From Candidatus Dormiibacterota bacterium (lineage in GTDB: Bacteria > Chloroflexota > Dormibacteria > Aeolococcales > Aeolococcaceae): a stretch of 64,000 bases of DNA. The notes below the pieces were generated by a model, which saw only the letters and a program-made list of their open reading frames with translations, searched no databases and was not told where the DNA came from. The stretch covers positions 5,197-69,196 of the forward strand of contig DAINCY010000001.1 of the NCBI GenBank assembly GCA_036732145.1, read 5' to 3'. The position numbers and the translations under genes were made by a program. Every line of letters begins with the position of its first letter. Positions within the stretch are counted from its first letter, which is position 1. Shown here piece after piece: positions 8,101 through 59,481 of this stretch.

Positions 8101-8761
8101 TGTAGTGCGCGTCATTGGTGGCCACCAGCGGCAGACCGGTGCGCCGGGCGATCTCAACCAACCCGGTGCGGATGGTCTCCTCCTCGGGAATCGCGTGGTC
8201 CATGATCTCGAGGAAATAGCCATCGCGTCCAAACATCTCCATGTGCTGCCGCGCAACACTCTCGGCCGCATCCATGTCACCGGCGAGAATCGCCTGCGGC
8301 AACTCTCCGCCGATGCAAGCGGACAGGCAGATCAGGCCCTCGGCGTGTTCGGCGAGCAGCTCCTTGTCGATGCGGGGCTTGTAGTAGTAGCCCTCGAGAT
8401 GCGATTTGCTGACCAGCTGGATGAGGTTGCGATAACCGATCTGATTGCGCGCCAGGACGATGAGGTGGTTGGGGTCGCGGTCGGTCCGCCCCTCCTTGTC
8501 ATGGCGCGAGCGCGGCGCCATGTACATCTCGCAGCCGATGATCGGCTTGATTCCCGCAGCCCGCGCGGACGTGTAGAACTTGACCGCGCCGTAGAGGGCG
8601 CCGTGATCGGTGATGGCCAGCGCCGGCTGACCGTGTTTCTTGGCGGTTGCCACCAGGTCGCCGATGCGCGCCGCGCCATCGAGGAGTGAGTACTCGGTGT
8701 GGGTGTGCAGATGGACAAACGGCTCGTTCTGTACCTCAACCCCATCGACCGCCAAGTCCAA
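5159..8761 (-). CDS. dnaE: DNA polymerase III alpha subunit
   Basis: 1200 aa. N-terminal PHP domain (HLHTHTEYSLLDGA). Pol III alpha core fingers/palm motifs. C-terminal OB fold. Confidence 0.95.
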   Translation of the reverse strand: MDLAVDGVEVQNEPFVHLHTHTEYSLLDGAARIGDLVATAKKHGQPALAITDHGALYGAVKFYTSARAAGIKPIIGCEMYMAPRSRHDKEGRTDRDPNHLIVLARNQIGYRNLIQLVSKSHLEGYYYKPRIDKELLAEHAEGLICLSACIGGELPQAILAGDMDAAESVARQHMEMFGRDGYFLEIMDHAIPEEETIRTGLVEIARRTGLPLVATNDAHYIGVDDAEAHDILLCIQTQARRADEKRFRFAGPHFSVTTGAQMRDRFAAYGEAVSNTLAVADLCNLELKLGGNLLPTYSPIPPGHTAESYLRELCEAGLRERYGEDITTEARERLAMEVDVIETTGFAPYFLIVWDLIRAARCDGVVVGPGRGSSAGSLVAYVLRITNICPLRYGLIFERFLNRERVELPDIDIDFDDRRRDRVLQYVQGKYGEDHVAQIITFGTMAARAAIRDVGRALNVPLPDVDRLAKLVPMSVKITLDKALADSRELRGLYESEGWARQVIDNARRLEGICRNASTHAAGVVIGAEPLTNIVPLQRSTTGDRSSAVTMFDMEGIAKVGLLKIDFLGLTNLTVIEEALRMVERSTGQVIDIDDIPLDDPATYALLCKADTHGVFQLEATFAKRILIDMQPRSLEDLGVAVALNRPGPIEGGVVDLYMKRKRGELPVEYPAGLEALLDPVLAETHGTMVYQDQVMKIAQAVAGFTLGEADLLRGAMGKKDKQKMAKQREKFVAGAAANGIAADRATELFDLMAHFAGYGFNKAHSVAYGLISYQTAYLKANHPLEYMAALLNSRGGDFDKLKQTILDAHAHGLVVHKPDINRSGAGFVVGDAAGGEILFGLQHVKNVGNSVTETVIEARDQAGPFTSLLDLCMRVESRDLNRRVMESLIQCGALDPLGDRHALLRQLDSAMDHAAAVRRERDLGQTSLFGDAVDIIGILVPHVAPDGDNGEPNRGDDSWLAWERDLLGMYLSDHPLRRIAATLQERIDTSINELGAHLDGLVVQVGGCIRDVRAFVPRKSTTGQRMAFLQIEDLTGACEVVVFNRVFEEVAELLRPDAVVVIRGKVETARPAPNSADDEERESEPAKIRADAIFAIDDPRLVGWRRNSLVHFRLGPHQHHLVAPLHKAIAEHRGDAPVLIHVESAESIDDIALDDGFTVEPGPGLERTVEALLGAGAYRLETRRERAPDREAWGAGRRS

Positions 8762-8921
8762 CTCCCTCGCGCTGCTGTCGAACAGACGTACGGGAGTATA
8801 AGGCTAGGCTTGGCCAGCCGTTTGTCGTTTCGAGGTCAACGCTGGGCCGGCGTCAGGTCGCGCCGACGAGTTGGGCGACAATCCGCAGGGACCTTTGGCC
8901 GCCCCTGTAACGTGAGGCCGC

Positions 8922-9923
8922 GTGGACTTTCTCACCGGCCTGCACGGCGCTGTCGCAACCGTCCTCATCTGTGTCCTCCTCTTCATCGACGAGGCGGGCG
9001 TGCCGCTGCCGTTCATGCCCAACGAGGTGCTGCTCATCGTGGCCGGCCTGCTGATCGCAGCCGGCAGCCTCAACCCCTTCATCTTCTATCCAATCGCGTG
9101 CCTGGCGCTGTTCGGAGGCTCCTTCAGCGGGTACAGCTGGGCCAAACGGGTGGGTCCCAAGCAGCTGCGCCGGGTGGCGGGGATGCTCCGAGCCACCAAG
9201 GCGTACGACCGAGCCACCCGCCGCCTGGCGAACGCTGACGCTCGCCACCTCGCGCTGAGCCGCGTGATCCCCGGTATCCGGGTGTACGCGACGCTGTGTG
9301 CCGGCTCGGCGCAGGTTCCGGCGCGAACATTCTGGGCGGCCAACGTGCCCGCCATCCTCGGGTGGGTGGCGGTGATGACGGGCGTCGGCTTCGTGGTCGG
9401 CGCGCCTGCCGAGCACCTCCTGACCGCGGTTGAGGCCCAGCTGTTCAACTTCGCCCTCAGCGGGGGGCTGCTGGTGGCGCTGGGCGTGGTCGCGTACCGC
9501 GCCGCACGCCGGGCTCCGGATCCACGTCGTGAGCCGGCATCCGGACCCTTTTTCGGGATCGCGACGCGTGACCGCTACTGGCTTGCGTTTGCCGTCGACG
9601 CCGGCATCATCGCGACCGTCGTTGCCGGCTTTGACCGGATCACACGCGCGGTGCTGCACTTCAAGTATCAGATCCTCCCTGAGGGGAAGTACGACGTCGG
9701 GGTGATCGTCCTCGCCATGGCGCTCGCCTACATCGTGGTGAGCCGGCGCAGTTCCACAGGGGAGACGGCGGGCGAGCGGCTGTTCGACATCAGCTATGTG
9801 CACCGTGGGCTCAGGACTCCCGTGGCGCCCGACCCTTTCGACGACGAGGACGAGGACAGCGGGTTGGCAGAGGCGGTCGTGGTCATCGAACCGCGTGAAC
9901 GGTCGCCGAATGGTTCGGGATGA
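8922..9923 (+). CDS. Membrane protein fusing an N-terminal DedA/VTT (SNARE-associated) domain to a C-terminal RDD domain
   Basis: N-terminal ~190 aa match the DedA pattern (FIDEAGVPLPFMPNEVLLIVAGLL ... RVIPGIRVYATLCAGS). C-terminal region has RDD-family hallmarks (R..D...D start, RRSSTGETAGERLFDISYV end) and four hydrophobic helices. Confidence 0.65.
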   Translation: MDFLTGLHGAVATVLICVLLFIDEAGVPLPFMPNEVLLIVAGLLIAAGSLNPFIFYPIACLALFGGSFSGYSWAKRVGPKQLRRVAGMLRATKAYDRATRRLANADARHLALSRVIPGIRVYATLCAGSAQVPARTFWAANVPAILGWVAVMTGVGFVVGAPAEHLLTAVEAQLFNFALSGGLLVALGVVAYRAARRAPDPRREPASGPFFGIATRDRYWLAFAVDAGIIATVVAGFDRITRAVLHFKYQILPEGKYDVGVIVLAMALAYIVVSRRSSTGETAGERLFDISYVHRGLRTPVAPDPFDDEDEDSGLAEAVVVIEPRERSPNGSG

Positions 9924-10085
9924 CGGGACGACGACCAGCCAGCCGCTGCCAAATTGTTGCCGTAGCCGCGCCAGCTGCCACCCTCCACGGCCCGCCCGTC
10001 TTGGCGTCGCGCAAACGTCTCATGGACTTCGATCGCGGCAAGCGCTATCCTCTGTGACCTGAGGACGCTTCGGGAGGTTCGGGGG

Positions 10086-10271
10086 ATGGAAAGACGGCTC
10101 TCGCCGGAGAGCGAGAAGGCGGCGCAGTGGCTTGCCGACCTGCACGAGGATCTCCTCCTGATTCGCTATCCCACGCGCGTGGAGATGGCGCGCGCGGTGG
10201 GTGAAGCGGCGCGACGGGCGGAGAGCCTGGCGCGGCTCGAGTACGCGCTGCAGGGCCTGCGTCTGCCCTGA
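10086..10271 (+). CDS. Small hypothetical protein (61 aa, predicted helical)
   Basis: ORF only; no family recognised. Lies in an otherwise empty intergenic stretch. Confidence 0.2.
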   Translation: MERRLSPESEKAAQWLADLHEDLLLIRYPTRVEMARAVGEAARRAESLARLEYALQGLRLP

Positions 10272-10386
10272 CGCCAGGGTCGCCCGCGGCGGCATGGAGA
10301 GGCCGACCGCGGGACAAGGAACACCGTCGGTCGCGCCCTTTCCCCCGGACGTGCTGCTCGCGCTACGGCCGTCGCCGCGGACGACA

Positions 10387-10644
10387 CCTACTCCGCGAAG
10401 ATCTGATCCCAGGCGGCAGCGTCCTCGGGGTAGAACCAGCGTTCGAGCTGCTGTCCCTCGCGGTAGTGGAAGACGCTCACCACGCGTGTCTGTACATCGA
10501 CACCGCTACGTTGCGCGCCCATGATGCTCAGCGCGCAGACATGCCGTCGATGCCGATAAGGGCAGCCAGTGCGGCGTGATCGGCAGATCGGAATGCGTCT
10601 GCGGTGCGGCGATAGGCAAGCGCATTGGGATGCTCGCCGCTCAT
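10387..10644 (-). pseudogene. SnoaL-like (NTF2-fold, polyketide-cyclase-like) gene remnant with an internal deletion and frameshift
   Basis: N-terminal 38 codons (MSGEHPNALAYRRTADAFRSADHAALAALIGIDGM) end in TGA. The C-terminal 45 codons lie in another frame (VVSVFHYREGQQLERWFYPEDAAAWDQIFAE*). Both halves match the SnoaL_2 family and the middle ~50 codons are absent. The ATG overlaps the marR stop as ATGA. Confidence 0.55.
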
Positions 10645-11102
10645 CGCCGAACAGCTCGGCGACGAAGTGTGACCTGCGGCACCGGGCGCGAACTCATTGC
10701 TTCGATATTCGCGCGCATCCGCGCCAGAGCATGGATGAGCTGTTCGCGGGCGGCTTCGTCGACGCCTTCCAGTAGCTCCACCGACGAGGCGTGAACGATT
10801 GGGAGCATGCGGTCGACCAGGTGTCGGGCATCCTCGGTGATGTCCACCAGCAGCCTGCGCCGATCGTCTGGATGGGGCTCACGGCGCACCAGCCCGTGGC
10901 GTTCCAGGGTGTCGAGCAGCGACGTGATGCTGCCGCTGGTCTGTAGCAGTCGCTCGGCGATGACCTTCGGCGGCAGCGGTTCGCCGGCGCCCTCGATGAC
11001 GGCGAGTGCCTGCCACGCACTCGCCGAGAGATCGGCGACAGCCTTCCTCCGCCGATCCACCTCGGCAAGGCCCAGCGAGGAGGTGCGAGCGAGGTTCAAC
11101 AT
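10641..11102 (-). CDS. MarR family transcriptional regulator
   Basis: 154 aa from the internal ATG (MLNLARTSS...). Winged-helix MarR pattern (SGSITSLLDTLERHGLVRREPHPDDRRRLLVDIT). The long upstream extension of the ORF is not supported. Confidence 0.8.
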   Translation of the reverse strand: MLNLARTSSLGLAEVDRRRKAVADLSASAWQALAVIEGAGEPLPPKVIAERLLQTSGSITSLLDTLERHGLVRREPHPDDRRRLLVDITEDARHLVDRMLPIVHASSVELLEGVDEAAREQLIHALARMRANIEAMSSRPVPQVTLRRRAVRR

Positions 11103-11193
11103 GACCTCGCTCGCCGACCTGCTCGCACCCGGGAACTCCGCCTCGAAGTGCGCCGCCTGGCGGAGGGGCTCCGGTTGGGGCGGCGTCCCTCGG

Positions 11194-11481
11194 TCAGACC
11201 GGCTGCGCGGCGAGGGTTTCACCAATCACAACATGGGGCTCGCTGATCACACCGGCGGTCTGCATGACGGACTTCACTGAGGGATCCGCCATAAAGCCGA
11301 AAGCGGCCTCGCGTGACGGGCAGTCCATCACGAGCAGGATGCTGTTGGGGTCCTCCGCGCCGCGATACACCGCCTCGTTGGTGAAGCCGTGCTCACGCCT
11401 GACTGGTGCATGACCGTCGAATGCCGGGCGCCAGACGTCGTAGTCGCGAACCTGATGCGCGACGCTGATGGTGATGGCCAT
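11194..11481 (-). CDS. Small alpha+beta-barrel (ABM/Dabb-like) protein, first gene of the MarR operon
   Basis: 95 aa. Size and composition suggest a dimeric alpha/beta-barrel stress or antibiotic-biosynthesis monooxygenase-like protein. No catalytic motif confirmed. Confidence 0.45.
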   Translation of the reverse strand: MAITISVAHQVRDYDVWRPAFDGHAPVRREHGFTNEAVYRGAEDPNSILLVMDCPSREAAFGFMADPSVKSVMQTAGVISEPHVVIGETLAAQPV

Positions 11482-11518
11482 GGTGGTCCTCCTCGAGCTT
11501 GCCCGGTTCGGGATTTAT

Positions 11519-11560
11519 ACTTGATTTCAAGCTACTTGATATCAAGACTCATTGTCAAGT
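11519..11560. promoter_or_regulatory. Cluster of CTTGA-N2/3-TCAAG palindromes, putative MarR operator, in the promoter region of the ABM-marR operon
   Basis: CTTGATTTCAAG (11520-11531), perfect palindrome CTTGATATCAAG (11535-11546) and a third TTGTCAAG half-site. Sits in an AT-richer island immediately upstream of the minus-strand operon that starts at 11481. Confidence 0.45.
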
Positions 11561-12832
11561 GTCCGGCGGCGGACCCCAAGGCAATGGAGCGCTTCGGATG
11601 GCTTCGAGAGGCGTGAGATCGCCGCGGTGGAGCGTGGCGACGCACTCGATGTGGTGGGTCTGCGGAAACATGTCGACCAGCTCGAAGTCCTCGATCCGGT
11701 ACGGTCCGGACACGCTGAGCAGGCGCAGGTCGCGCGCCATGGTTGCGGGATCGCACGACAGATAGACGATGGTCGGCGGGCCGGCCAGTGCCAGCCAGGC
11801 GGCGACCCTTGGGTGACACCCGGCGCGAGGTGGATCGAGCACGATGGCGTCCGCGCCGACGCCGGCGGACGGCAGCGCGTCCTCCACCGCTGCCGCAATG
11901 TAGCGCACGCGCCCAGCGCAGCCGTTGAGCTCGCTGTTGAGCACGCCGAACCGAGCCGAGTCGCGATTGTTCTCGATGCACACCACCGATGCCCCGGCCG
12001 TCGCCAGCTCACAGGCGAGAACGCCGATACCGGCATAGGCGTCGACGATGGTGGTGCCGGCGACGTCTCCGAGGCCACGCAACGCCGATCCGTAGAGGGT
12101 TTCGAGCTGCCCCCAGTTGACCTGGATGAAGGTGTCCGGCAGGACGCGAAAGTCGTGGCCCCGCCAGTGGAGTGTCGTGGAGTTCGTGCTCCAGCGCACC
12201 TCCGCCGTCCGCGCCTGGGCATCTACAGCGGCGCTCGGGATGGCTCGCGTTGGGCGCGGCCGCAGCAACAGCTCATTGCCGTCCTCTCCAACCGTGAGAT
12301 GGAGCGCGGTCAGGTCTGTGGTGCCCGCGCCGCGCACCAGGCTGCGCAGCGCCGGCAGTGCGTCGGCGATGCGGGGATGGTGGATCAGGCAGTCGTCGAC
12401 GGGCACCGGTTTCCAGCTGCGCATCCGGTTGAACCCAAGCCGTGCGTCCGCCATGCCGGTGTCGCCGGGGATGACGTGAAACTCGCCGCGCCAGCGGTAG
12501 CGCCACGGATCGTCCATGCCATGGACGGTGATGTCATGCGGCAGCGCCACGTGCTGCCGGCGCATGGCGTCGCGGACGACGTCCTGCTTCAGCGTCAGCT
12601 GGTGTGCGTAGTCGACGTGCTGGAGTTGACAGCCGCCGCACTCCCCGTAGTACGGGCACGGCGCCCCCACCCGATACGGCGACGCCTCACCCACCGCGAC
12701 GGTGCGCGCAAACCACAACCTTCCCTTGCGGTGGTGGAGTTCCACGTCGACGAGTTCGCCGGGCAGCGCGCCGTCGACCAACAGGGCTGTGCCGTCATCG
12801 AGGCGGCCGAGGCACACCGCTCCGTGCACCAT
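11555..12832 (-). CDS. 23S rRNA (uracil-C5)-methyltransferase, RumA/RlmD family, with TRAM domain and Fe-S cluster
   Basis: TRAM domain with a four-cysteine cluster (CPYYGECGGCQLQH). Class I methyltransferase motifs (DAYAGIGVLA, VLDPPRAG). Start taken at the internal MVHGAVCLGRL. Confidence 0.8.
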   Translation of the reverse strand: MVHGAVCLGRLDDGTALLVDGALPGELVDVELHHRKGRLWFARTVAVGEASPYRVGAPCPYYGECGGCQLQHVDYAHQLTLKQDVVRDAMRRQHVALPHDITVHGMDDPWRYRWRGEFHVIPGDTGMADARLGFNRMRSWKPVPVDDCLIHHPRIADALPALRSLVRGAGTTDLTALHLTVGEDGNELLLRPRPTRAIPSAAVDAQARTAEVRWSTNSTTLHWRGHDFRVLPDTFIQVNWGQLETLYGSALRGLGDVAGTTIVDAYAGIGVLACELATAGASVVCIENNRDSARFGVLNSELNGCAGRVRYIAAAVEDALPSAGVGADAIVLDPPRAGCHPRVAAWLALAGPPTIVYLSCDPATMARDLRLLSVSGPYRIEDFELVDMFPQTHHIECVATLHRGDLTPLEAIRSAPLPWGPPPDT

Positions 12833-12902
12833 GGCGCCGGCGACGACGCTGAAGCGCTCCCCCCGGCGATGTTGCGCAGGCGCGATCGGAGGAGACGCGA
12901 GC

Positions 12903-14378
12903 TCAGGCGGAGAGTCGCTCACGCAGCAGGGTGGTGACGAGGGGGGCGTCGGCACGGCCGCGGGTGGCCTTCATCACCTGGCCCACCAGTGATTGCAGGG
13001 CGACGTCGCGGCCACCTCGAAAGTCAGCGCACGCCTTGGGGTTCGCCTCGATCACCTCCGCGATGATCGCCGCCAGCTGGTCGGCGTCGCCGACCTGGCC
13101 GAGCCCGCGATCGGCGACGAGCGCGGCAGGATCTCCCCCGCTGATGTACAGCTCGACGAGCAGCTCCTTGGCTGTCGACCCATTGATGGTGCCGGCCTCG
13201 AGCAGTCTGAGCAGCTCAGCCAGGCCACTCACCCCAAGCCCGCTGTCGGCGAGGGCCAGACGGTGCTCGTTGGCGAGCGCACCGACATCGCCCATCTGCC
13301 AGTTGGCGGCAATCTTGGCGGAAACGCCCGCACCCACCAATGCTTCGTAGGTGTCGGCGTCGGCGCGCGCGCTGGTGAGGACTCCGGCATCGTAGGCAGA
13401 CAGTCCGTATTGCTCACTGAATCGCGCCGCACGGGCCTCGGGCAGTTCGGGGATGGCGGCGCGGATGCGCTCCACAAGTTCACGGCTCAGCTGCAGCGGC
13501 GGGAGATCCGGCTCCGGGAAGTATCGATAGTCGTGGGCCATCTCCTTGCTTCGCTGCGACACGGTCGCACCTCGCGTCTCCACCCAACCACGGGTTTCTT
13601 GGACGAGAGTTCCGCCCCCGTCGAGGACCGCCGCCTGCCGCTCGATCTCGAACGTGATCGCTCGGTGCACGGCGCGAAAGGAGTTCATGTTCTTGACCTC
13701 GACCTTGGTGCCGAGCTCGGTTTCACCACGCGGTCGCAGCGACACGTTGGCGTCGCAGCGCAGCGAACCCTCCTCAAGGTTGCCGTCGTTGACACCGATG
13801 TACATGAGGATCTGGCGCAGGCGCACCAGATACTCGCGCGCCGCGTCCGCGCTGCGCAGGTCCGGTTCGCCAACGATCTCCATCAGCGGCACGCCGCAGC
13901 GATTGAGATCGATCAGGGAGCTGGTCGCCTCCTGGAGGACGTCGCCGGCGTGGTGCATCGTGCCCGTGTCCTCCTCAAGGTGAACGCGCGTGATGCCACA
14001 ACGCGTGCGCTCTCCGTCGACGACGAACTCAAGGTGTCCGTTCTGCGAGAGCGGAAGGTCGTACTGCGAGATCTGGTATCCCTTGGGAAGGTCCGGATAG
14101 AAATAGTTCTTGCGGTCGAACTTGGTGAAGGGCGGGATGTCGCAGTCGAGAGCGAGCGCGGTGAGCACTGTCATCTCCACCGCCTGCCGGTTCATCACCG
14201 GCAACGCGCCGGGCAGGCCCAGGCAGACCGGGCAGGTATTGCCATTGGGCGGCGCCGCGGTGTACTCGGCGCTGCAGGGGCAGAACATCTTGCTGCGCGT
14301 GAGCAGCTGGGCGTGCACCTCGAGCCCGATCACGACCTCGTAGCCGGTGTCGACGTGGGGCGGAGCCTGCACGGTCAT
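12903..14378 (-). CDS. gatB: Asp-tRNA(Asn)/Glu-tRNA(Gln) amidotransferase subunit B
   Basis: GatB N-terminal signature [13 protein letters not shown]. The ATG at 14378 overlaps the gatA stop as ATGA. The N-terminal 87 codons of the ORF are rejected. Confidence 0.95.
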
Positions 14379-15838
14379 ACGGCGACCAGGGGCGCTCGCT
14401 GCAGATGCCACTCGGTGGCGGCCTCGTACGCGGCGGCCACCTGGAAGACGCGTGCATCGCACAGACGCGGGGCGATCACCTGCAGGCCGACGGGCAATTG
14501 CTCGCTGAACCCGCAGGGCAGCGAGATCCCGGGAAGCCCGGCGAGGTTGACGGGGATGGTGAGCACATCGTTGAGGTACATCTCGACGGGGTCCTGGATG
14601 GCGCCGGTGGTGAAGGCCACCTTTGGGGATGTCGGACACACCAGCGCGTCGACCGTCTCGAACACCGCGTCGAACTCACGCGCGATCAAGGTGCGCACCT
14701 TCTGGGCACGCCGGTAGTAGGCGTCGTAGTACCCGCTGCTGAGCGCGTAGGTGCCCAGCATCACCCGCCGTTTCACCTCGTCGCCGAAGCCCTCGTCGCG
14801 GGTGCGCAGGAATGTCTCGGTGAGCGACGGTCGTTCCACCCGGCGACCGAAGCGGACGCCGTCGTAGCGGGCCAGGTTCGACGAGCACTCGGCGGGCGCG
14901 ATGATGTAGTAGGTCGACACCCCGAGGTCGGTGCTTGGCAGCGACACCTCGGTCACCGCTGCACCGAGCCCCTCGAGGACTCGGATCGCCTCGACGACGC
15001 GATCGCGCACCCCCGCCTCCAATCCCTCGCCCATGTACTCGCGTGGGACACCGAGACGCATGCCCCTGACCCCGTCGCCCAGTGTCGCCTGGGGATCGTC
15101 CATGGCGTCGGTGACCGAGGTGCTGTCGCGAGGATCGTTGCCACTCACCACCGCGTACGCTGCCGCGGCGTCCTCCACGGTGTGCGCGAACGGACCGATC
15201 TGGTCCAGGGACGACGCGAAGGCGATCAGCCCATACCGAGACACGCGCCCGTACGTCGGCTTGAAACCCACCACGCCACAGAGAGACGCCGGCTGGCGGA
15301 TCGATCCGCCGGTGTCGGTGCCGTAGCTGATCGGCACCATCCCCGCGCCCACCGCGGCTGCGCTGCCTCCGCTGCTTCCCCCCGGGACGCGCTCCACGTC
15401 CCACGGGTTGCCCACCGGCCCGAAGGCGGAGTTCTCAGTGGACGAGCCCATTGCAAACTCATCGCAGTTGGTCTTGCCCACCGGGACCGCCCCAGCATCC
15501 AGGAGGCGCTGCACGGCGGTGGCGGTGTACGGCGGCCGGAAGTTCTCGAGGATGCGCGACCCGGCAGTTGTCGGGTACCCCTCTACGCAGAGGACGTCCT
15601 TGAGCGCGACCGGGATGCCGCAGAGCGGACCTGCACCGCCTGGGTCGTCGCGCAGCATCTGCGCGGCCCGCTCGGCCTGTGTCTCCGCGAGCTCGTCGGT
15701 GAGCGCCAGGAAGGCGTTGAGCGAGCCATTGAGACGGCTCACCTGCGTGCGGGCATCATCGAGCAGGTTCCGTGGGGTGACCTGGCCGCGGCGCAGGGCC
15801 ACGGCCATCTCGGTCGCGGTCAGACCGGAGCTGCTCAC
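14375..15838 (-). CDS. gatA: Glutamyl-tRNA(Gln) amidotransferase subunit A (amidase family)
   Basis: Amidase signature [11 protein letters not shown] and the Ser-cisSer-Lys triad region. 487 aa. Overlaps gatC and gatB by 4 nt each. Confidence 0.95.
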
Positions 15839-50833: not shown

Positions 50834-52534
50834 TCAGCCGACAGGCAGCACCGCGGTGTGCTCGATGCGCACCGCCTTCAGGTCACCCGGCTCCAGTCCC
50901 AGCAGCGCAAGGATGGTTGGTGCGATCTGCGTGGTCTCCACGGCGCGGTCATCGATCACGTGCGTGGCAACCGACCCGCCCGACACCACCAGCGGGACGT
51001 CGCGGTCCTGCGGGTTGGCACCGCCATGCTCGGCGATCTTGCCCATCTTGCCGGTGTAGACGCTGCCGAGCTGCGCGATGCCCAAGACGTCAGGAACGCG
51101 CGCGTCGCCGGGCGCCACATTGAAATAGTCAGCCGCCGCCTCTCCGGCGTGGACCGCCCTCAGTCCCGACTGGCTGAACGGCTTGGGGTTGCCGTTGATG
51201 TCGTTGCCGGTACCAGAATGCCCGAGCAGGAAGGTGCGCGCGAAGGACGTCGCCGCCGCCGAGCGATCGTTGAGCCAGATCATCATTCCATCGTCATCGA
51301 TGGCGAACGCCACCAAGGCTGCCGTCGACGAGGGATGGGCCGCCTGCCAGGCCGCGTCCAGCGCGTCGATGATGGGGCCGTCGGGGATGCGGGTCAGTCC
51401 GGCCGGCGTCTGCGGCGACTGGCCGTGCTTGGCGGACAGGATGATGGTGGTGCTCTTGTCGAGGTGCCGGTCCCGGATGGCGTCGCGGAAGCTGCCCACC
51501 TGGGTGTTGATGTAATCGAGGGCACGCACCAGCAGCGGTCCAGGGGTCACACCGTCGGCGAGGTAGCCGCCGGGTAGGCCGTTGGACACCGGCAGCTTCT
51601 CCGCGGTGGAGACGGTCTGGAAGTTCATCCCGAAGATCGAGGGTGTCCCCACAACGGTGCTGCCGCTGTGGTCGTAGCCGTTGATCTCATTGATCACCGC
51701 CTGCACCTTGTAGCTGTCGTACTGCATGGTGAGGGCGTTGTCGGTGGTCCAGTCGTTGCTCGAGCCCAACGTCGGCGCGTTGCTGTTGATCTCGGGCGTG
51801 AACAGGTCCTGGATGCCCGCGCCCGACGGCCCGTTGAGGACCTCGTACGCGGCGTGCTTGTCCGACCAAGCAGTGCGCAGTCCGGCGGCGCGTGCCACCT
51901 CGAACACCGTGTTGACCTTCAGGTAGGAGTGCGGGTACACCGGCTTGCAGGTGACCGGGTCGACGGGCAGCTTGGACGGATCGAGAAGGGTGGTTGCGTT
52001 GCCGGTGAGCTGCAGGATGCTGCCGGGCAAGTTGGCCAGGCCCTGGCCGGCATCCAGGGAGAGCGGGTTGAGGTCGGCCGCCTCGAAATAGGTCACCTCG
52101 ACGCCCGGCGTCGCGCCCGCACAGTTGGTGGTGCCCGCCGGAAGCAGGGCGTGGCTGTAGCTGTCGTCGTAGTAGATGCCGGTTGATGACGGGTTGCCGC
52201 CGGTCACCTGGCCGACCATCCCGGGGAACGAGTCCGAGGGAACCGGCGTCACCGCGTTGCTGAATTCGACGCCGGCGCCGACCAGCCTGGCAAGGGCGGA
52301 GTTGGGATGGTGCGCGACGTACCAGGTGAGGTCGGTCTGGTGCAGGCCGTCGACCGAGAGCAGCAGGACATGACGGTCCTGAGCACCGTCGTGGGCCAAT
52401 ACCGTGCCGGAGACGCCCAGCGACAGGGCGGTCAGACCGAGGGTGGTCAGCGCGGCGACACAACGGACAACTTTTCCTGGCACCGGTGGCCCTCCTGGAG
52501 CAACGACCGCGGACGCGGTGCGGGGCACCGCCAA
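50834..52534 (-). CDS. Secreted alkaline-phosphatase-superfamily enzyme (type I phosphodiesterase / nucleotide pyrophosphatase, PF01663-like)
   Basis: N-terminal signal peptide. Metal-site motifs LLLSVDGLHQTDL and TPVPSDSFPGMVGQVTGGNPSSTGI. 566 aa. Confidence 0.6.
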   Translation of the reverse strand: MAVPRTASAVVAPGGPPVPGKVVRCVAALTTLGLTALSLGVSGTVLAHDGAQDRHVLLLSVDGLHQTDLTWYVAHHPNSALARLVGAGVEFSNAVTPVPSDSFPGMVGQVTGGNPSSTGIYYDDSYSHALLPAGTTNCAGATPGVEVTYFEAADLNPLSLDAGQGLANLPGSILQLTGNATTLLDPSKLPVDPVTCKPVYPHSYLKVNTVFEVARAAGLRTAWSDKHAAYEVLNGPSGAGIQDLFTPEINSNAPTLGSSNDWTTDNALTMQYDSYKVQAVINEINGYDHSGSTVVGTPSIFGMNFQTVSTAEKLPVSNGLPGGYLADGVTPGPLLVRALDYINTQVGSFRDAIRDRHLDKSTTIILSAKHGQSPQTPAGLTRIPDGPIIDALDAAWQAAHPSSTAALVAFAIDDDGMMIWLNDRSAAATSFARTFLLGHSGTGNDINGNPKPFSQSGLRAVHAGEAAADYFNVAPGDARVPDVLGIAQLGSVYTGKMGKIAEHGGANPQDRDVPLVVSGGSVATHVIDDRAVETTQIAPTILALLGLEPGDLKAVRIEHTAVLPVG

Positions 52535-52583
52535 CAGGTCGCGAGGCTATGCGCGGCGCGGAGGTGAGGGTGGTAAGTGAGAG

Positions 52584-53672
52584 TTAAGAATCCGCGGTGT
52601 CAACTGCTGGCGACGGCGTCAGCACCAGCTTGCCCCGCCGCTCCCCGCCGGCCAGCGCCACGAAGGCTTCCGCGGCGCCGGCGAGTGGCCGCACCGAGTC
52701 GACGAGAGGATGCACCCGCCCGGTGGCGCACAGCTCGACGACGCGCGACAGCTCCTCACGCGTTCCCATGGTGCTGCCGGCGATGGTCAGTTGGCGCCAG
52801 AAGATGCGGTTGAGCTGCGCCGGCGGATTGGCTCCAGTGGTTGTCCCTGACACCACCACGACGCCGCCCGGCCTCACCGCGCGCAACGAGAAGTCCCAAG
52901 TGGCCTCTCCGACGGTGTCGAGAACGGCATCCACGCCGCCGCCGCTGGCAGCGATCACCTGCTTCACGGCGTCGCGATCGGTGGCGAACGCGGCCGCGGC
53001 CCCGAGCTCAACAGCTGCGCGCCGTTTGGCTTCGTCACGCGAGGTGGCGAACACCGTGAGGCCGCCGGCTGTCCCCAGGAGGATGGCTGCGCTGGCCACG
53101 CCCCCGGTGGCGCCGTGGACGAGCACTCGTTGGCCCGGGCGCAGCGCCGCTCTCACGAACAGCATCCGATAGGCGGTGAGGTAGGCCGTCGGCAAACAGG
53201 CCGCCGTGACACAGTCGACGCTCTCGGGAAGCGCAAGAATGTTGCTGACCGGGACCACGAGGCGTTCTGCGAGCGTGCCCGGGAATGGCGGTTCGCTGAG
53301 CAGGCCGATGCGCGGGCAGTGAAGTTCGTCACCGGAACGGCAGGCCGGACACCGGCCGCAGGTCATGACGCTGTGGACCACGACCGCGGCCCCGACGGCG
53401 GGGGCACCCTCGGGCGGCTCGCCCCCGCCGTAGCCAAGAACGAAGCCGGCCGCATCGCAGCCGAGGACCTGCGGTTCGGTCAGCGGGCGCGAGCCGACCC
53501 CGCGCAGGGTCCAGAGATCGTGGTGATTGAGGGCCGCCGCGGCGACAGCGATCAGCACCTCTTCCCTGCCGGCAACGGGATCGGTGACCTCGGCGATCTC
53601 GAGGTTGCTGAGCGGGTCGTCACCGCCGTATCGGACCGCACGAACTGCCAGCACGGCCGCCAACGGTAGCAT
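52584..53672 (-). CDS. Zinc-binding MDR-family alcohol dehydrogenase / quinone oxidoreductase
   Basis: GroES-like domain with Zn-ligand cysteines (CGRCPACRSGDELHC). Rossmann motif VLVHGATGGVASAAILLG. Start inferred at the internal ATG at 53672. Confidence 0.75.
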   Translation of the reverse strand: MLPLAAVLAVRAVRYGGDDPLSNLEIAEVTDPVAGREEVLIAVAAAALNHHDLWTLRGVGSRPLTEPQVLGCDAAGFVLGYGGGEPPEGAPAVGAAVVVHSVMTCGRCPACRSGDELHCPRIGLLSEPPFPGTLAERLVVPVSNILALPESVDCVTAACLPTAYLTAYRMLFVRAALRPGQRVLVHGATGGVASAAILLGTAGGLTVFATSRDEAKRRAAVELGAAAAFATDRDAVKQVIAASGGGVDAVLDTVGEATWDFSLRAVRPGGVVVVSGTTTGANPPAQLNRIFWRQLTIAGSTMGTREELSRVVELCATGRVHPLVDSVRPLAGAAEAFVALAGGERRGKLVLTPSPAVDTADS

Positions 53673-53715
53673 CACGGTGGCGCCGAACCGCCGAGGTCCG
53701 TCACCATCATGGGCC

Positions 53716-54603
53716 ATGCGCATCGATAGCCTGTTCAGGCAGGACGAGCCGCTCTTCTCCTTCGAGTTCTTTCCGCCGCGGGACGACGAGGGTGCCGACA
53801 GGCTGTTCGACACCATCGCGACACTGGGCGACCTGTCGCCGGCATTCGTGTCCGTGACCCACGGCGCCGGCGGCAGCCAGCGCGATGACCGAACCGTCCG
53901 GCTTGTGGAACGCATCGGCCGCGAGACCGGGCTGCTGCCGATGGCCCACCTCACCTGCCGCGACTCGACGATCGCGGAGCTCCTCACGGAGATCCGCCGA
54001 TACCAGGACGTGGGGATCGACAACGTCCTAGCGCTGCGCGGTGATCCACCCAACGGGGAGGGACGGTTCGTTCCCCACGAGGGCGGCCTGCGCTACGGCA
54101 GTGAGCTGGTGCGCCTCCTCCACGACAACGCCGACATCTGTGTCGGCGCCGCCTGTTCTCCCGAGAAGCACGTCGAGTCGGCGAGCCTGGACGACGACGT
54201 CGTCGCCGCGTGCCAGAAGGTGGAGGCGGGTGCGAGCTTCCTGATCACCCAGCTCTTCTTCGACAACAGCCGCTACTTCAGCTTCGTGGCGCGGGCGCGG
54301 GCGGCTGGTGTGGACGTGCCCATCGTGCCCGGGATCATGCCCATCACCAACGTCGACCAGGTCTACCGCTTCACCGCGAAAATCGGCGCGTCGATTCCGA
54401 CGGCGCTCCGCGCTGCGCTGGAGACGCGGATGGACGATCCCCACGCGGTCATTCAGCTGGGCGTTGCCTGGGCCACGTTGCAATGCAGCGAGCTGCTCCG
54501 CGCCGGTGCGCCCGGCGTGCATTTCATCACGCTGAACCGCTCTCCGGCGACCCGCGCCATCCTCACGGCACTGCGGATCGCCCGACCCTGGGAGGCCGGC
54601 TGA
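53716..54603 (+). CDS. metF: 5,10-methylenetetrahydrofolate reductase
   Basis: MetF pattern FSFEFFPP, HLTCRD and ITQLFFD. 295 aa from the internal ATG. Confidence 0.85.
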   Translation: MRIDSLFRQDEPLFSFEFFPPRDDEGADRLFDTIATLGDLSPAFVSVTHGAGGSQRDDRTVRLVERIGRETGLLPMAHLTCRDSTIAELLTEIRRYQDVGIDNVLALRGDPPNGEGRFVPHEGGLRYGSELVRLLHDNADICVGAACSPEKHVESASLDDDVVAACQKVEAGASFLITQLFFDNSRYFSFVARARAAGVDVPIVPGIMPITNVDQVYRFTAKIGASIPTALRAALETRMDDPHAVIQLGVAWATLQCSELLRAGAPGVHFITLNRSPATRAILTALRIARPWEAG

Positions 54604-55877: not shown

Positions 55878-57527
55878 TCAGGCAGCCCCCAGGTAGGTGT
55901 CGGGAAGGTCGTTGGCGAACAGGACGGCATCGCCGGCGCCGGCGATGCGACCGATCATCTCGGTGGCCTCCGCGAGCGACCGCACCACGTGGACGCGGTC
56001 GTCGGACATGCCGCCGGCGCGCAGGCCGTCTCGCAGAGCGCGCGCCGGTCGCGCGTCCATGACGATGACGTGGTCGCAGACGCGGGCGGCGTGCTCACCG
56101 TACCTGCGGTTCTCCTCGTCCTCGACAGCTCCCAACTCAACCAGGCCGGGGGTGACGAGGATGCGCGACCTCGCCTCGAGCTGCGACAGCACCTCAAGCC
56201 CGTTGTGCACGCCCACCGGGTTGGCGTTGTAGGAGTCGTCGATGACGGTGATGGCATTGCCGGTGGGAACGGGTTGGAGGCGATGATCGACCGGGCGCAG
56301 CGAGGCCACCTCGGCCAGCGCGGGGTGGAGAGGCAGACCGAGCCGGTGCACAGCCGCCAGGGCCGCACTGACGTTGAGCACCTGGTGACGACCGAGGAGC
56401 GGCAGCTCGAGATCATGGTGCACTCCGGCTGCTGGCCATCGCCACGTGAAGCGCGAGCCCTGTCCCGTGATCTGGACATCCTCGGCCACAACATCGAGAT
56501 CGCCTGTCCCCGCAATGCCGTAGCGGATCACCTCATGTCCTGCTGCCCGGGCCCTGGCCGCCAGGGCAGCGCCCCACTCGTCTCCCGCGTACACCAGCGT
56601 AAAGCCATCCGGCGCCAGCGCGTCGATGGTTTCGTAGAGGGCGCTGCTGATGCGCTCGAGGCTGCCAAAGCGCTCCAGGTGCTGCGGCCCGACTGAGGTG
56701 ACCAGAGCGTGACGTGGTCGCACAAGAGCGCAGATGGACGCGATCTCTCCGGGAGCGTACGCGTCCATCTCGACGATGAAGGTGCGGTGATGCTCGTCGA
56801 GGACGTCGTTGACCGTGCGGCACACGCCCATCAGGGTGTTGAAGCTCTTGGGGGTCGCCAGCGTGGGGCCGTACTGCTCCAGCATGTGCGCCAGGATGTG
56901 CTTGGTCGAGGTCTTCCCGTAGCTTCCCGCCACCGCGATCACCAGCGGCTGGAACCGTTCGAGCCGGAGCCGGGCGCGTCGCAGGAAGCCGCGCCGCACC
57001 CCCGCCTCGATCGGTGCGTTGAGGATGTTGGCGGCCACCAGCACCCCCATGCTCAGCGCCGTGAACCCGAGAGACAGCAGGGTGGACAGGGCGCCGGCGA
57101 CCCACACGGGACCGATGGACACCGCCAGCGAGACCAGGGCGGCGAGCAGTGCGCCGAGGACGGCGGCGGTCGCCAGCATGCGGCGCAGCCGCGGGGTGTA
57201 CACCAGTTCCTTCTTGGGCCGCAGCCATCGCCAGAGGACGTGAGCCGCGCCGACCCCGCCGGCCCATGCGGCCGCCACCGCGACGCGCAATCCCGGCCTG
57301 CTGAGGTCGGTGATCGCGAACACAGTCACCACCGCAACAGGGGTGGTGGCGACCATCACGCAACGATGGAGCAGCCAGCGGCGCGTGGCGCCCCAGGCGA
57401 GCAGCCGTGCTGCCTCGTACTCCTCGATCTGATACATCCGAGCCGCAACCAGGGCAGCGCGACCAAGCAGCGCCATCCAGGCAGCGCCCGCGACCGCGAC
57501 CAGCGCACCCTGGAGCGCGGCGGTCAC
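55878..57527 (-). CDS. MurF-like Mur ligase (D-alanyl-D-alanine-adding enzyme signature) with an N-terminal polytopic membrane domain
   Basis: Mur ligase P-loop VIAVAGSYGKTSTK. MurF-specific C-terminal motif IDDSYNANP. The first ~190 aa contain 4-5 hydrophobic helices in place of a soluble MurF N-domain. The ATG overlaps the hydrolase stop as ATGA. Confidence 0.7.
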   Translation of the reverse strand: MTAALQGALVAVAGAAWMALLGRAALVAARMYQIEEYEAARLLAWGATRRWLLHRCVMVATTPVAVVTVFAITDLSRPGLRVAVAAAWAGGVGAAHVLWRWLRPKKELVYTPRLRRMLATAAVLGALLAALVSLAVSIGPVWVAGALSTLLSLGFTALSMGVLVAANILNAPIEAGVRRGFLRRARLRLERFQPLVIAVAGSYGKTSTKHILAHMLEQYGPTLATPKSFNTLMGVCRTVNDVLDEHHRTFIVEMDAYAPGEIASICALVRPRHALVTSVGPQHLERFGSLERISSALYETIDALAPDGFTLVYAGDEWGAALAARARAAGHEVIRYGIAGTGDLDVVAEDVQITGQGSRFTWRWPAAGVHHDLELPLLGRHQVLNVSAALAAVHRLGLPLHPALAEVASLRPVDHRLQPVPTGNAITVIDDSYNANPVGVHNGLEVLSQLEARSRILVTPGLVELGAVEDEENRRYGEHAARVCDHVIVMDARPARALRDGLRAGGMSDDRVHVVRSLAEATEMIGRIAGAGDAVLFANDLPDTYLGAA

Positions 57528-58294
57528 GAGGTCTCGCGGCGCAGGAAGACGTTGACGATGCGACAGAAGCGGTCGGGCTCCTGCGCATACGCGAAGTGAC
57601 CACAGCCGTCGAACACCACCAGGCCGGCGTCGGGTATGAGCAGCTCCATGAGGCGCGCGTCACTCAGCGGCGTCTCCTGGTCGCGCGCACCCCAGATCAA
57701 CAGCGTGGATGCGGCCAGTCGCGAGAGCTGGGGGCGCAGGTCCGCGTTGACCAGCCGCACCATGCTGGCTCGAACCGTTCCCGTCGCTGCCCGGTAGTCC
57801 TCGCTGCCCCGCAGCTCAGCACGACGCTGGGCCAGGCGGCGAAGTGGCGCGGGCAGCCAAGGCCGCAGTGAGGCGGCGCGCAGCGCCTTGAAGGTGCCCA
57901 CCCGCCACCGGTGGCCAAGCCCATGGCGCGGCCGGATCCCCGCGCTGTCGGTGAGGACCAGGCGATCCACCCTGTGCGGGTGGGCGGACCCCACGGCGAT
58001 GGCCACCCGGCCGCCGTTGGAGTGCCCGACGATATGGGCGCGCTCGATGCCCAGGCGATCGAGCAGGGCGATCACCCACTCGGCATAGTCGTCCACCCCC
58101 CAGGCCTGAGGCGGAGGTGGGGTGGCCCCGAAGCCGGGCAGGTCGGGGGCGACGATGCGGTAGCCGGGGAGCCGCTCTGCGATGGGGGCCATCAGCTCCT
58201 TGCTCGCACCCCACCCGTGGAGCAGGAGCAGCGCCGGCCCGCTGCCCTGATCGAGCAGGGCTGCGGCCGGGTCCTCTGCAATCGCGACCATCAC
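57524..58294 (-). CDS. Alpha/beta-hydrolase fold protein
   Basis: LLLLHGWGAS oxyanion region, nucleophile elbow GHSNGG, C-terminal His (GCGHFAY). Overlaps ddl and the MurF-like gene by 4 nt each. Confidence 0.8.
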   Translation of the reverse strand: MMVAIAEDPAAALLDQGSGPALLLLHGWGASKELMAPIAERLPGYRIVAPDLPGFGATPPPPQAWGVDDYAEWVIALLDRLGIERAHIVGHSNGGRVAIAVGSAHPHRVDRLVLTDSAGIRPRHGLGHRWRVGTFKALRAASLRPWLPAPLRRLAQRRAELRGSEDYRAATGTVRASMVRLVNADLRPQLSRLAASTLLIWGARDQETPLSDARLMELLIPDAGLVVFDGCGHFAYAQEPDRFCRIVNVFLRRETS

Positions 58295-59481
58295 GGGACG
58301 GTCTTGGCGCCTCCGCCGCCGAGCATCCAGTGATCGAACACCACCGTGCTCTCACCGCGTCGGGCGTGACCTCGACGAGCAATCTCGATCAGCTCGTCGA
58401 GCAAGGCTGTGAAGGAGAGTCCCGCCGGCTCGAAGAGATAGAACGAGAGGGAGCCGGGAATGGGATTGACCTCGTTGACCACAAAGCTCTGAGCTTCGGT
58501 GTCGACAAGGAAGTCGATCCGGGCGACGCCCGATGCTCCCACTGCTGCAAAAGCCGCCAGGGCCGCGGCGCGAACGCGCGACGCGAGCTCCTCGTCGAGC
58601 GGCGCCGGGATGATTCGCTGTGCGCCCTTCATCCCCGCCGAGGTGCTCGACGACTTGGCCGAAGGGGCCCGGTATTTGTCGTCGTAGCTGAGCAGGCCAC
58701 GCTTGGTCGGCTGTTCGAGGAGCGAGGTGCGGGCGTCGATCCCATCGCCAAGAACTGCGCAGTTGATCTCGACGATCTGCTCCTGAGCGGCCTCGACGAG
58801 ACAGCGTTGATCGTAGGTGAGGGCGACGTCGACGGCGTCGCGCAGCTCTGATCGATGTGCGGCCCGCGACACGCCGATGCTCGACCCCAGGCTGACCGGC
58901 TTGACGTAGAGCGGGTACGACGCCAGTGCCTCGGCCGCGTGCACGGCCTCATCAACGTCGTCGCGCCAGCGGTCGCGGTCGATGACGACATCGCCGAGCA
59001 CCGGCAGATCCGCGGCGCGAAGCACCGTCTTGGCCAGCGACTTGTCCATGGCCACCGCGGAGGCGGCCACACCGCTGCCGGTGTATGGAATCCCCGCCAT
59101 GTCGAGAAGGCCCTGCAGGCTACCGTCCTCCCCGAAGCTGCCGTGCACCAGTGGCATGGCGACATCGACGTCCACCGCAGCGGCGCCGGCACGTCGGAGG
59201 AGGCCGCGGCGCGAGGCCCCCACGGGCAGCAGCGCCAGCCCTGGGCGTGAGGGGTCGATGACGGGGGTGACCACGGTGCAACCGGCGAGCAGACTGTCCA
59301 CGTCGGCGAACCGATCCAGTTGAGTGAGGGGATCGCCTGTGTACCACCTGCCGTTCTTGGCGATGTACACCGGCACCGCGTGATGCCGGGGCGAGAGTGC
59401 AGCCAGCACCTGATGCGCGGTGATCACCGAGACCTCGTGCTCGACCGAACGGCTCCCGAAGATGGCGGCGACGGTGCTCAT
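58291..59481 (-). CDS. ddl: D-alanine--D-alanine ligase
   Basis: N-terminal AAIFGSRSVEHEVSV. ATP-grasp motifs. SYDDKY omega-loop region. C-terminal NEVNPIPG. 396 aa, slightly extended. Confidence 0.9.
   Translation of the reverse strand: MSTVAAIFGSRSVEHEVSVITAHQVLAALSPRHHAVPVYIAKNGRWYTGDPLTQLDRFADVDSLLAGCTVVTPVIDPSRPGLALLPVGASRRGLLRRAGAAAVDVDVAMPLVHGSFGEDGSLQGLLDMAGIPYTGSGVAASAVAMDKSLAKTVLRAADLPVLGDVVIDRDRWRDDVDEAVHAAEALASYPLYVKPVSLGSSIGVSRAAHRSELRDAVDVALTYDQRCLVEAAQEQIVEINCAVLGDGIDARTSLLEQPTKRGLLSYDDKYRAPSAKSSSTSAGMKGAQRIIPAPLDEELASRVRAAALAAFAAVGASGVARIDFLVDTEAQSFVVNEVNPIPGSLSFYLFEPAGLSFTALLDELIEIARRGHARRGESTVVFDHWMLGGGGAKTVP

Follow-up and report, generated by a model that had tools for sequence, protein, structure and literature searches.

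A MurF-type ligase with a predicted membrane domain is encoded together with a serine hydrolase and a D-alanine--D-alanine ligase in Dormibacterota and other bacterial phyla

A 64,000-nucleotide stretch of DNA from a Candidatus Dormiibacterota bacterium (contig DAINCY010000001.1; this whole stretch is referred to as the window) contains a division and cell wall (dcw) cluster that encodes a MurF-type ligase of uncharacterised architecture. Five predicted membrane helices take the place of the soluble domain 1, which binds UDP-N-acetylmuramic acid (UDP-MurNAc) in canonical MurF. The protein, named here TM-MurF for its transmembrane (TM) helices, is encoded next to a serine hydrolase with an alpha/beta fold and Ddl, a D-alanine--D-alanine ligase, and the same three-gene module occurs in numerous other bacteria. 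With moderate confidence, TM-MurF is interpreted as the working MurF of its lineage, tethered to the membrane and having the hydrolase as an obligate partner. The module occupies the following positions in the window.

55878..57527, minus strand: TM-MurF, 549 amino acids, GTG start, stop codon included; identified from the open reading frame (ORF) listing, Pfam, NCBIfam, and AlphaFold.
57524..58294, minus strand: alpha/beta serine hydrolase, probably cytoplasmic, 255-256 amino acids; identified from Pfam (Abhydrolase_1).
58291..59481, minus strand: Ddl, D-alanine--D-alanine ligase of the module type, 396 amino acids; identified from NCBIfam (NF002528).

The gene order of cell-wall clusters provides the strongest evidence that TM-MurF does the job of MurF. 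In closed chromosomes of Poribacteria and NC10, the order is rsmH-ftsL-ftsI-murE-hydrolase-TM-murF-ddl-mraY-murD...murC, so that the module fills the slot between murE and mraY, which is the canonical place of murF. The other ligases encoded in these loci are MurE, MurD, and MurC, all of which score above their NCBIfam cut-offs. In Dormibacterota, the full cluster can be read from L010, a contig of 25 kb belonging to a near-identical strain, and consists of RNase H, mraZ, rsmH, a small FtsL-like ORF, ftsI, mraY, murD, ftsW, murG, murC, murB, ddl, the hydrolase, TM-murF, and ftsQ. The stretch from mraZ to ftsQ in this strain contains neither murE nor another murF. From ftsI on, the same order is found on L001, the contig from which the window was taken, and on that of one relative (L003), and the cluster order is kept in two relatives at 54-57% identity (L003 and L004). 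The 64-kb window contains no second Mur ligase besides murC and no second ddl. Cell-wall clusters of at least three phyla thus hold TM-MurF with no other murF in view. The first-pass annotation of the window had called the gene a murF paralog, a name that is at odds with the missing second murF in the cluster and the window and with the position of the module in the murF slot of NC10 and Poribacteria. In the dcw cluster of Dormibacterota, ftsI is followed directly by mraY, and murE is not part of the cluster (L010, positions 1-20792; L001).

TM-MurF can be divided into an N-terminal membrane domain, a central ATP-binding domain, and a C-terminal domain, with the following features.

56943..57527, minus strand: N-terminal membrane domain, residues 1-195; five predicted TM helices with the N-terminus outside, after which a linker helix (171-192) lies in the cytoplasm.
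57414..57431, minus strand: QIEEYE in cytoplasmic loop 1; the family keeps Q33 and Y37 without exception and E35 nearly so.
57180..57218, minus strand: basic cytoplasmic loop 3, PKKELVYTPRLRR; T111, R113, and R116 are invariant and K105/K106 are nearly so.
56298..56942, minus strand: central ATP-binding domain of Mur ligases (Pfam), with the P-loop and the invariant E253 and H283.
56904-56927, minus strand: P-loop GSYGKTST of the central domain; GSYGKT does not vary among 133 family members.
56763..56765, minus strand: Asp255; the aligned MurF of P. aeruginosa and of E. coli have Gly here, as do 103 of 133 family members.
56637..56639, minus strand: Leu297, aligned with Lys202 of E. coli MurF.
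55881..56297, minus strand: C-terminal domain of Mur ligases (Pfam), with DDSYNANP and the family-specific C-terminal NDLPDTY.
56217-56240, minus strand: DDSYNANP, a MurF-type motif of the C-terminal domain.
55893-55913, minus strand: NDLPDTY, which replaces the canonical MurF ending.

The domains that follow the membrane region are those of a MurF. Pfam matches Mur_ligase_M (PF08245) to residues 199-393 (E 3.9e-35) and Mur_ligase_C (PF02875) to residues 415-538 (E 3.4e-15), with no family found before residue 199. Among NCBIfam models, TIGR01143 (murF) scores highest, with 202.3 bits, which does not reach the curated cut-off of 288.6. The alignment to this model begins at profile position 64, corresponding to residue 184 of TM-MurF, and therefore the canonical N-domain is missing; the score below the cut-off is consistent with its absence. 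The scores of other NCBIfam models are 85 bits for murC, 81 for murE, 62 for murD, 42 for Mpl, 27 for CphA, and 18.9 for MurT. In a sequence search of the PDB, the top matches are MurF of P. aeruginosa (135 bits) and of E. coli (126 bits), and each of the nine structures that Foldseek ranks highest for the AlphaFold model is a MurF. TM-MurF is closer to MurF than to any other family of Mur ligases. The P-loop and MurF-specific motif reported in the first-pass annotation were both located in the ORF, and its proposed profile searches found the two Mur-ligase domains. The comparison that it suggested with MurT and CapB/PgsB revealed no such relationship: the MurT score compares with a cut-off of 800, and CapB/PgsB gave no match at E <= 0.01.

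The residues expected of an active ligase are conserved in the family. The P-loop, E253, H283, N385, R416, N436, P460, and G461 are kept in at least 132 of 133 members, and H415, D430/D431, and N434 in 126-130 (D431 in 130 and N434 in 127, compared with 132 for N436). As motifs, His415-Arg416, DDxYNANP, and TPGxxELG are kept in at least 125 members, most of them in at least 130. The family ends with the sequence (F/L)(E/A)NDLPDxY. Judged from their sequences, the ATP-binding and C-terminal domains look MurF-type and catalytically complete.

Residue 297 aligns with Lys202 of E. coli MurF, the carbamylated lysine of MurD, MurE, and MurF. This residue is Lys in 103 of the 133 family members, whereas in the clade of the window it is Leu, Ile, or Met and is accompanied by Asp255. 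The combinations found at positions 255 and 297 are (Gly, Lys) in 101 sequences, (Asp, Leu/Ile/Met) in 28, (Asp, Lys) in none, and (Gly, non-Lys) in two. The carboxylate of Asp255 probably stands in for the carbamate at the lost lysine of residue 297. The covariation of Gly/Lys with Asp/Leu is the pattern expected if a carboxylate replaces a carbamate, which speaks for an enzyme kept active by compensation and against a decayed one.

Residues 1-170 of TM-MurF are hydrophobic according to hydropathy analysis. AlphaFold places five long helices at residues 2-34, 55-73, 80-98, 112-138, and 141-169, two short helices in loop 1, and the linker helix 171-192, which leads into the ligase. The model is confident, with a predicted local distance difference test score (pLDDT) of 92.6 and a predicted template modelling score (pTM) of 0.87 for the full-length protein, and a pLDDT of 89.7 for the N-domain alone. 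The description of the first ~190 residues as hydrophobic helices instead of a soluble N-domain, given in the first-pass annotation, agrees with both analyses. The sum of Lys and Arg residues is four in loop 1, five in loop 3, and seven in the linker, with two more at the opening of TM4, compared with one in loop 2 and none in loop 4. These counts follow the positive-inside rule and fit a topology in which the N-terminus lies outside and the ligase faces the cytoplasm. The predicted five-helix membrane domain thereby takes the place of the soluble UDP-MurNAc-binding domain 1. No Pfam family and no solved PDB structure was found for it, and when 26 diverse N-domains were compared with Pfam at E <= 1, the few matches were weak, isolated, and scattered.

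The N-region is kept in more than 100 full-length homologues from Dormibacterota, at 53-82% identity, and in relatives down to ~30%. Of its 18 columns with at least 80% conservation, 16 fall in cytoplasmic loop 1, loop 3, and the linker, whereas the helices vary. The conserved cytoplasmic motifs are QxEEY..R...W, which follows helix 1, KKPLVxTxRxxR, which lies between helices 3 and 4, and PxE, which belongs to the linker. That the conserved positions are in cytoplasmic loops and not in membrane helices fits anchoring and docking better than a substrate site within the membrane.

Spurious long ORFs are frequent in DNA of high GC content, and dozens appear in the ORF listing of the window. The N-region might accordingly be an over-extended ORF with an internal true start, next to an unrelated hydrolase gene. 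This explanation is refuted by the evidence and is virtually certain to be wrong. The protein sequence of the N-region is conserved from 82% down to ~30% identity across phyla, with invariant motifs, and the hidden Markov model (HMM) of the N-domain matches 75 of 80 loci, including those of low-GC Firmicutes and Bacteroidales. In addition, the AlphaFold model of the region is confident, no in-frame start leaves a normal MurF N-domain, and the hydrolase adjoins the ligase in 68 of 72 loci. An internal methionine start, which the first reading of the sequence had kept in view, is contradicted by the same cross-phylum conservation, as the N-region is real coding sequence.

The genes ftsW, murG, murC, murB, ddl, hydrolase, and TM-murF follow each other in this order on the minus strand of the window, and a POTRA/FtsQ gene comes after TM-murF across a gap of 101 nucleotides. 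All junctions from ftsW to the MurF-like gene had been described as coupled by overlaps, those of the module by ATGA. The overlaps exist, and the coupling of TM-murF to the hydrolase and to ddl is real, but the sequence at the junctions is mostly GTGA. A four-nucleotide GTGA joins the start of TM-murF to the stop of the hydrolase gene, the murG/murC junction is also GTGA, that of ddl and the hydrolase is GTGATG, and ATGA is present only at murB/ddl. Judged from gene-caller starts, murC and murB overlap by 11 nucleotides and ftsW and murG by ~26. Translational coupling attaches the module to the end of the murG-murC-murB block, and the earlier proposal that the cassette is expressed together with the D-Ala-D-Ala supply follows reasonably from the coupling to ddl. 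The GC content of the window is ~0.68, and that of third codon positions in the TM-murF ORF is 0.85, similar to other genes. The nearest homologues of TM-MurF carry the name Candidatus Dormibacterota.

The Ddl encoded in the window passes the cut-off of NF002528 with 289 bits compared to the required 262, whereas the D-Ala-D-Lac ligase model NF000206 gives 178 bits against a cut-off of 550. All six module Ddl sequences that were read contain DDKY or an equivalent, with the Lys-Tyr pair in the omega loop that we take as the mark of D-Ala-D-Ala ligases. By these signatures, the Ddl of the module is a D-Ala-D-Ala (DdlA-type) ligase, which would supply the dipeptide. A resistance cassette of the van type was considered and rejected, as the Ddl passes the cut-off for D-Ala-D-Ala ligases and fails those for D-Ala-D-Lac and D-Ala-D-Ser ligases. 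The module Ddls have 390-430 amino acids (window, L005, L007, L008, and L009) and are presumably longer than E. coli DdlB. They carry an insertion rich in Gly, Ser, and Lys right behind the Lys-Tyr of the omega loop, which in the window is RAPSAKSSSTSAGMKGAQ.

The hydrolase matches Abhydrolase_1 (PF00561) with an E-value of 1.2e-32. Its catalytic and family-specific residues have the following positions.

58019-58021, minus strand: Ser92 within GHSNGG, the nucleophile of the triad.
57794-57805, minus strand: lid motif S-E-D-Y, family-specific.
57680-57682, minus strand: Asp205, the acid of the triad.
57596-57598, minus strand: His233, the histidine of the triad.

The HGWG oxyanion motif, the His-Ser of GHSxGG (Ser92), Asp205, and His233 are invariant in 79 hydrolase orthologues, as are the family-specific Ser164-x-Asp166-Tyr167 and Gly202. 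The invariance of the triad and oxyanion motif argues that the partner is a catalytic serine hydrolase; by its sequence it is an alpha/beta hydrolase with a Ser-Asp-His triad. Seven hydrolase sequences inspected by eye, without a predictor, show no N-terminal signal peptide or membrane helix. The protein scores under the cut-offs of all curated NCBIfam subfamilies (PcaD, BioH, MenH, BphD, and EstV), for example 105 compared to 256 for PcaD and 83 compared to 207 for BioH. Its relatives in the PDB are generic: the alpha/beta-fold hydrolase 6I8W matches in part, and the full-length matches are meta-cleavage-product hydrolases, the best of which is CumD with 98 bits.

The distribution of the family was determined with a profile of the N-domain alone, searched against 1.84 billion representative proteins clustered at 50% identity. 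The domain is present in 639 clusters, and the full-length proteins nearly all have 520-575 amino acids with the domain at the N-terminus. A profile built from distant members gave thousands of matches, whose names include Poribacteria, Ktedonobacterales, Dehalococcoidia, and Chloroflexota. A divergent subgroup of TM-ligases occurs in Alphaproteobacteria (Stellaceae and Bauldia). Genomes, one per species, were also scanned for the C-terminal patterns of the family, ..TPG[ML][VI]E and ..[EA]NDLPD. At least 584 species-representative genomes carry the C-terminal signature, and they belong to about ten phyla by record title. The first-pass annotation had allowed that the architecture might be merely typical of the lineage, and this largely proved to be so: it is the norm in Dormibacterota, with the more than 100 homologues mentioned above, and is widespread beyond them. 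The protein in the window typifies a large uncharacterised family and is not a peculiarity of one genome.

The composition of the module was counted in the best 80 of the at least 584 loci with the C-terminal signature. They come from Dormibacterota, Solirubrobacterales, NC10, many Clostridia and Tissierellia, Bacteroidales, Poribacteria, Chloroflexota, Synergistaceae, Spirochaetes, Acidobacteriota, Balneolaceae, Thiomargarita, and Parasutterella. The taxa are the record titles of metagenome-assembled genomes (MAGs), some of which may be mis-binned, with L013 being one likely case. The carriers in Bacteroidales are MAGs, several apparently from animal guts, and the cultured carriers include Peptoniphilus stercorisuis, Fenollaria massiliensis, [Clostridium] ultunense, Sporosalibacterium faouarense, and a Gorillibacterium strain. 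The 75 loci that match the N-domain HMM contain a full-length ligase ORF, and the remaining five end at contig edges. The 68 loci with an adjoining hydrolase, among the 72 with room for one, comprise 65 detected automatically and three found on inspection. In 71 of the 80 loci, Ddl is encoded no farther than 2.5 kb from the TM-ligase. The usual order, on one strand, is hydrolase, TM-ligase, Ddl; in Dormibacterota and a Bryobacteraceae MAG it is Ddl, hydrolase, TM-ligase. According to our own ORF calls, 17 of 66 junctions between the hydrolase and TM-ligase genes are overlaps of four nucleotides, and most others lie within ~60 nucleotides. Clustering of the neighbours in 86 loci showed no fourth conserved partner, and the frequent remainder consists of antisense shadow ORFs and lineage-specific core genes. 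In loci from Tissierellia and Clostridia (L020, L048, L063, L081, and L035), the module lies among eno, an iPGM-type phosphoglycerate mutase, H+-pyrophosphatase, rnr, and smpB. This conserved core-gene setting suggests vertical inheritance and not a mobile island. A tblastn search of 72,556 plasmids found no copy of the TM type, only matches of the canonical MurF type from residue 192 onward.

Four loci have no adjacent hydrolase (L043, L070, L075, and L085, from Thiomargarita, a MAG, Balneolaceae, and Parasutterella), and in three of these Ddl is not adjacent either. Such loci could serve as natural tests of whether the TM-ligase can do without the hydrolase.

If TM-MurF is the working MurF, it would add the product of Ddl to UDP-MurNAc-tripeptide at the membrane surface, and the helices would mainly tether this last cytoplasmic step to the membrane beside MraY. 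The loops with QxEEY and KKPLVxTxRxxR, together with the linker, may form a docking surface that replaces the lost domain 1 and holds the nucleotide-diphosphate end of the acceptor, or the hydrolase, or both. The hydrolase would form a complex with the ligase and act on a small carboxylate-bearing intermediate of the MurF step. Our best guess, a tentative one, is that it edits or turns over the dipeptide or the terminus of the stem peptide.

Several points weigh against this interpretation. TM-MurF scores under the curated MurF cut-off and is without the domain by which MurF holds its substrate at the UDP end. The interpretation offers no explanation of why a MurF should need a catalytic serine hydrolase, and the proposal that Asp255 replaces a carbamate draws on covariation. 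A canonical murF may possibly be encoded elsewhere in the genome, for example beside murE outside the dcw cluster. The module is also found away from dcw in Alphaproteobacteria: in two contigs from Stellaceae and relatives (L008, positions 7911-11590; L009, positions 7955-11602), the trio lies among unrelated metabolic genes with a divergent Ddl. It is present in Parasutterella and Thiomargarita as well. Proteobacteria carry the canonical murE-murF-mraY in dcw, and the module there is therefore probably an extra copy, which leaves room for a function other than that of MurF.

It is conceivable, but unlikely, that the module is an accessory system in which the TM-ligase joins the product of Ddl to an acceptor other than UDP-MurNAc-tripeptide, held at or in the membrane, the hydrolase prepares or edits it, and a canonical MurF encoded elsewhere makes the normal precursor. 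The acceptor could be lipid-linked MurNAc-tripeptide or another carboxylate-bearing lipid or polymer of the envelope. The replacement of the UDP-binding domain 1 by a polytopic domain, the score under the MurF cut-off, and the absence of a role for a catalytic hydrolase in the textbook MurF step are in line with such a system, as are the stand-alone copies in Alphaproteobacteria and the copies in other Proteobacteria, groups that have a canonical murF. However, NC10 and Poribacteria have the module in the slot between murE and mraY, and there is no other murF in those clusters or in that of Dormibacterota. The membrane helices are poorly conserved, and the conserved positions are cytoplasmic. 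The MurF-type DDxYNANP is kept, the attached Ddl is of the D-Ala-D-Ala type with Lys-Tyr, and the module was not found on any of the plasmids searched.

The probable extra copies in Proteobacteria would also fit an isozyme that carries out the same reaction redundantly or under particular conditions, with a canonical soluble MurF present in the genome and a second ddl-murF set serving growth or stress conditions. Many bacteria keep two isozymes of Ddl, and the location of murE outside the dcw cluster of Dormibacterota implies that part of the pathway is encoded elsewhere. We regard this explanation as unlikely, since the module is overlap-coupled within the core dcw operon in the window, fills the canonical murF slot in two other phyla, and lies among core genes in Firmicutes, and no second copy was seen in the loci embedded in dcw.

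A further variant, which we consider very unlikely, is that TM-MurF does not use the soluble nucleotide precursor: MraY would first transfer MurNAc-tripeptide to undecaprenyl phosphate, after which the TM-ligase would add D-Ala-D-Ala at the inner face of the membrane and the serine hydrolase would edit the terminus of the stem peptide. If the acceptor were lipid-linked and the module were the sole MurF, the last cytoplasmic step and the first membrane step of peptidoglycan synthesis would be reversed.

Canonical MurF (EC 6.3.2.10; PDB 1GG4, 4CVK-4CVM, 4QF5, and 3ZL8) is the best match of TM-MurF in sequence and fold. The two share the P-loop, the Glu, the His, and DDxYNANP, and TM-MurF is likewise tied to ddl and dcw, including the murE-mraY slot in some phyla. 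Unlike canonical MurF, TM-MurF has five predicted membrane helices and conserved cytoplasmic loops for domain 1, the (F/L)(E/A)NDLPDxY end, a hydrolase neighbour, Leu at the position of K202 with a putatively compensating Asp, and a score below the cut-off.

The nearest precedent for a Mur ligase acting with a partner enzyme at the membrane is MurT/GatD, which in Gram-positive bacteria makes up the lipid II isoglutaminyl synthase. MurT, a homologue of Mur ligases, lacks their nucleotide-binding domain at the N-terminus and acts in a fixed complex with GatD on a membrane-bound precursor. MurT is soluble, GatD is a glutaminase, and the chemistry is amidation and not the addition of a dipeptide. 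The MurT model scores far below its cut-off on TM-MurF, whose partner is an alpha/beta hydrolase and not a glutaminase. The MurE-MurF fusion (PDB 8F5D) matches TM-MurF in both the PDB sequence search and Foldseek, and is another case in which late ligases are physically organised. However, it consists of two soluble ligases and has neither a membrane domain nor a hydrolase. VanT, a serine racemase from a resistance operon, has a polytopic N-terminal domain on a cytoplasmic enzyme that feeds the terminus of the stem peptide. Its likeness to TM-MurF is one of architecture, no homology having been noted, and the Ddl of the window is of the D-Ala-D-Ala type.

The pipelines of NCBI and JGI already label these proteins MurF. 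A full-text literature search, which had most subscription journals outside its reach, found nothing on a membrane-bound MurF or on the three-gene module. The statement in the first-pass annotation that no MurF of this architecture has been characterised agrees with its absence from the PDB, Pfam, and the searchable literature.

MurF is taught, and targeted with inhibitors, as a soluble cytoplasmic enzyme with three domains. TM-MurF appears to be a second, widespread, membrane-integral form, and in Dormibacterota, NC10, and Poribacteria it appears to be the sole MurF of the cell-wall cluster. Should it be the working MurF, precursor synthesis in these lineages has its last cytoplasmic step tethered to the membrane and joined to a further hydrolytic step, and annotation pipelines give an uncharacterised architecture the name of ordinary MurF. 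The module is readily testable, since carriers can be cultured and MurF complementation and in vitro assays exist.

The ligase and hydrolase are joined in a single ORF in P0226 (869 amino acids), encoded on a 44.7-kb contig from ENA. The TM-ligase, preceded by an N-terminal extension of 45 amino acids, is followed by a C-terminal hydrolase that is 52% identical to that of the window; the order of ligase and then hydrolase is the reverse of the usual gene order. P0226 could be a true fusion or a read-through, and is regarded as tentative because it is the single member of its cluster. Two other apparent fusions are located at 1-2024 and 8019-10004 of L004. The Ddl-hydrolase ORF of 661 amino acids was rejected as an indel artefact, because the conserved C-terminus of Ddl is replaced by out-of-frame sequence. 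The FtsI-MraY ORF of 909 amino acids is, by analogy, probably also an indel artefact, and neither ORF was used as evidence.

The dcw cluster of the window is broken between ftsQ and ftsA, at 50834-54603. The break contains a plus-strand gene for methylenetetrahydrofolate reductase (metF), a gene of the zinc alcohol-dehydrogenase family, and a gene of the phosphodiesterase/sulfatase family. The insertion of metF and the alcohol-dehydrogenase gene is also present in the relatives at 54-57% identity (L003 and L004).

In a MAG of Ktedonobacterales (L007), the hydrolase and TM-ligase pair lies outside dcw, near Ddl and a gene of the MR_MLE family. Ddl is flanked there (positions 11693-14923) by the MR_MLE-family gene and by a gene for a protein of 294 amino acids without a Pfam match. 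The MR_MLE family includes L-Ala-D/L-Glu epimerases, and this neighbour hints at a link to the recycling of murein peptides.

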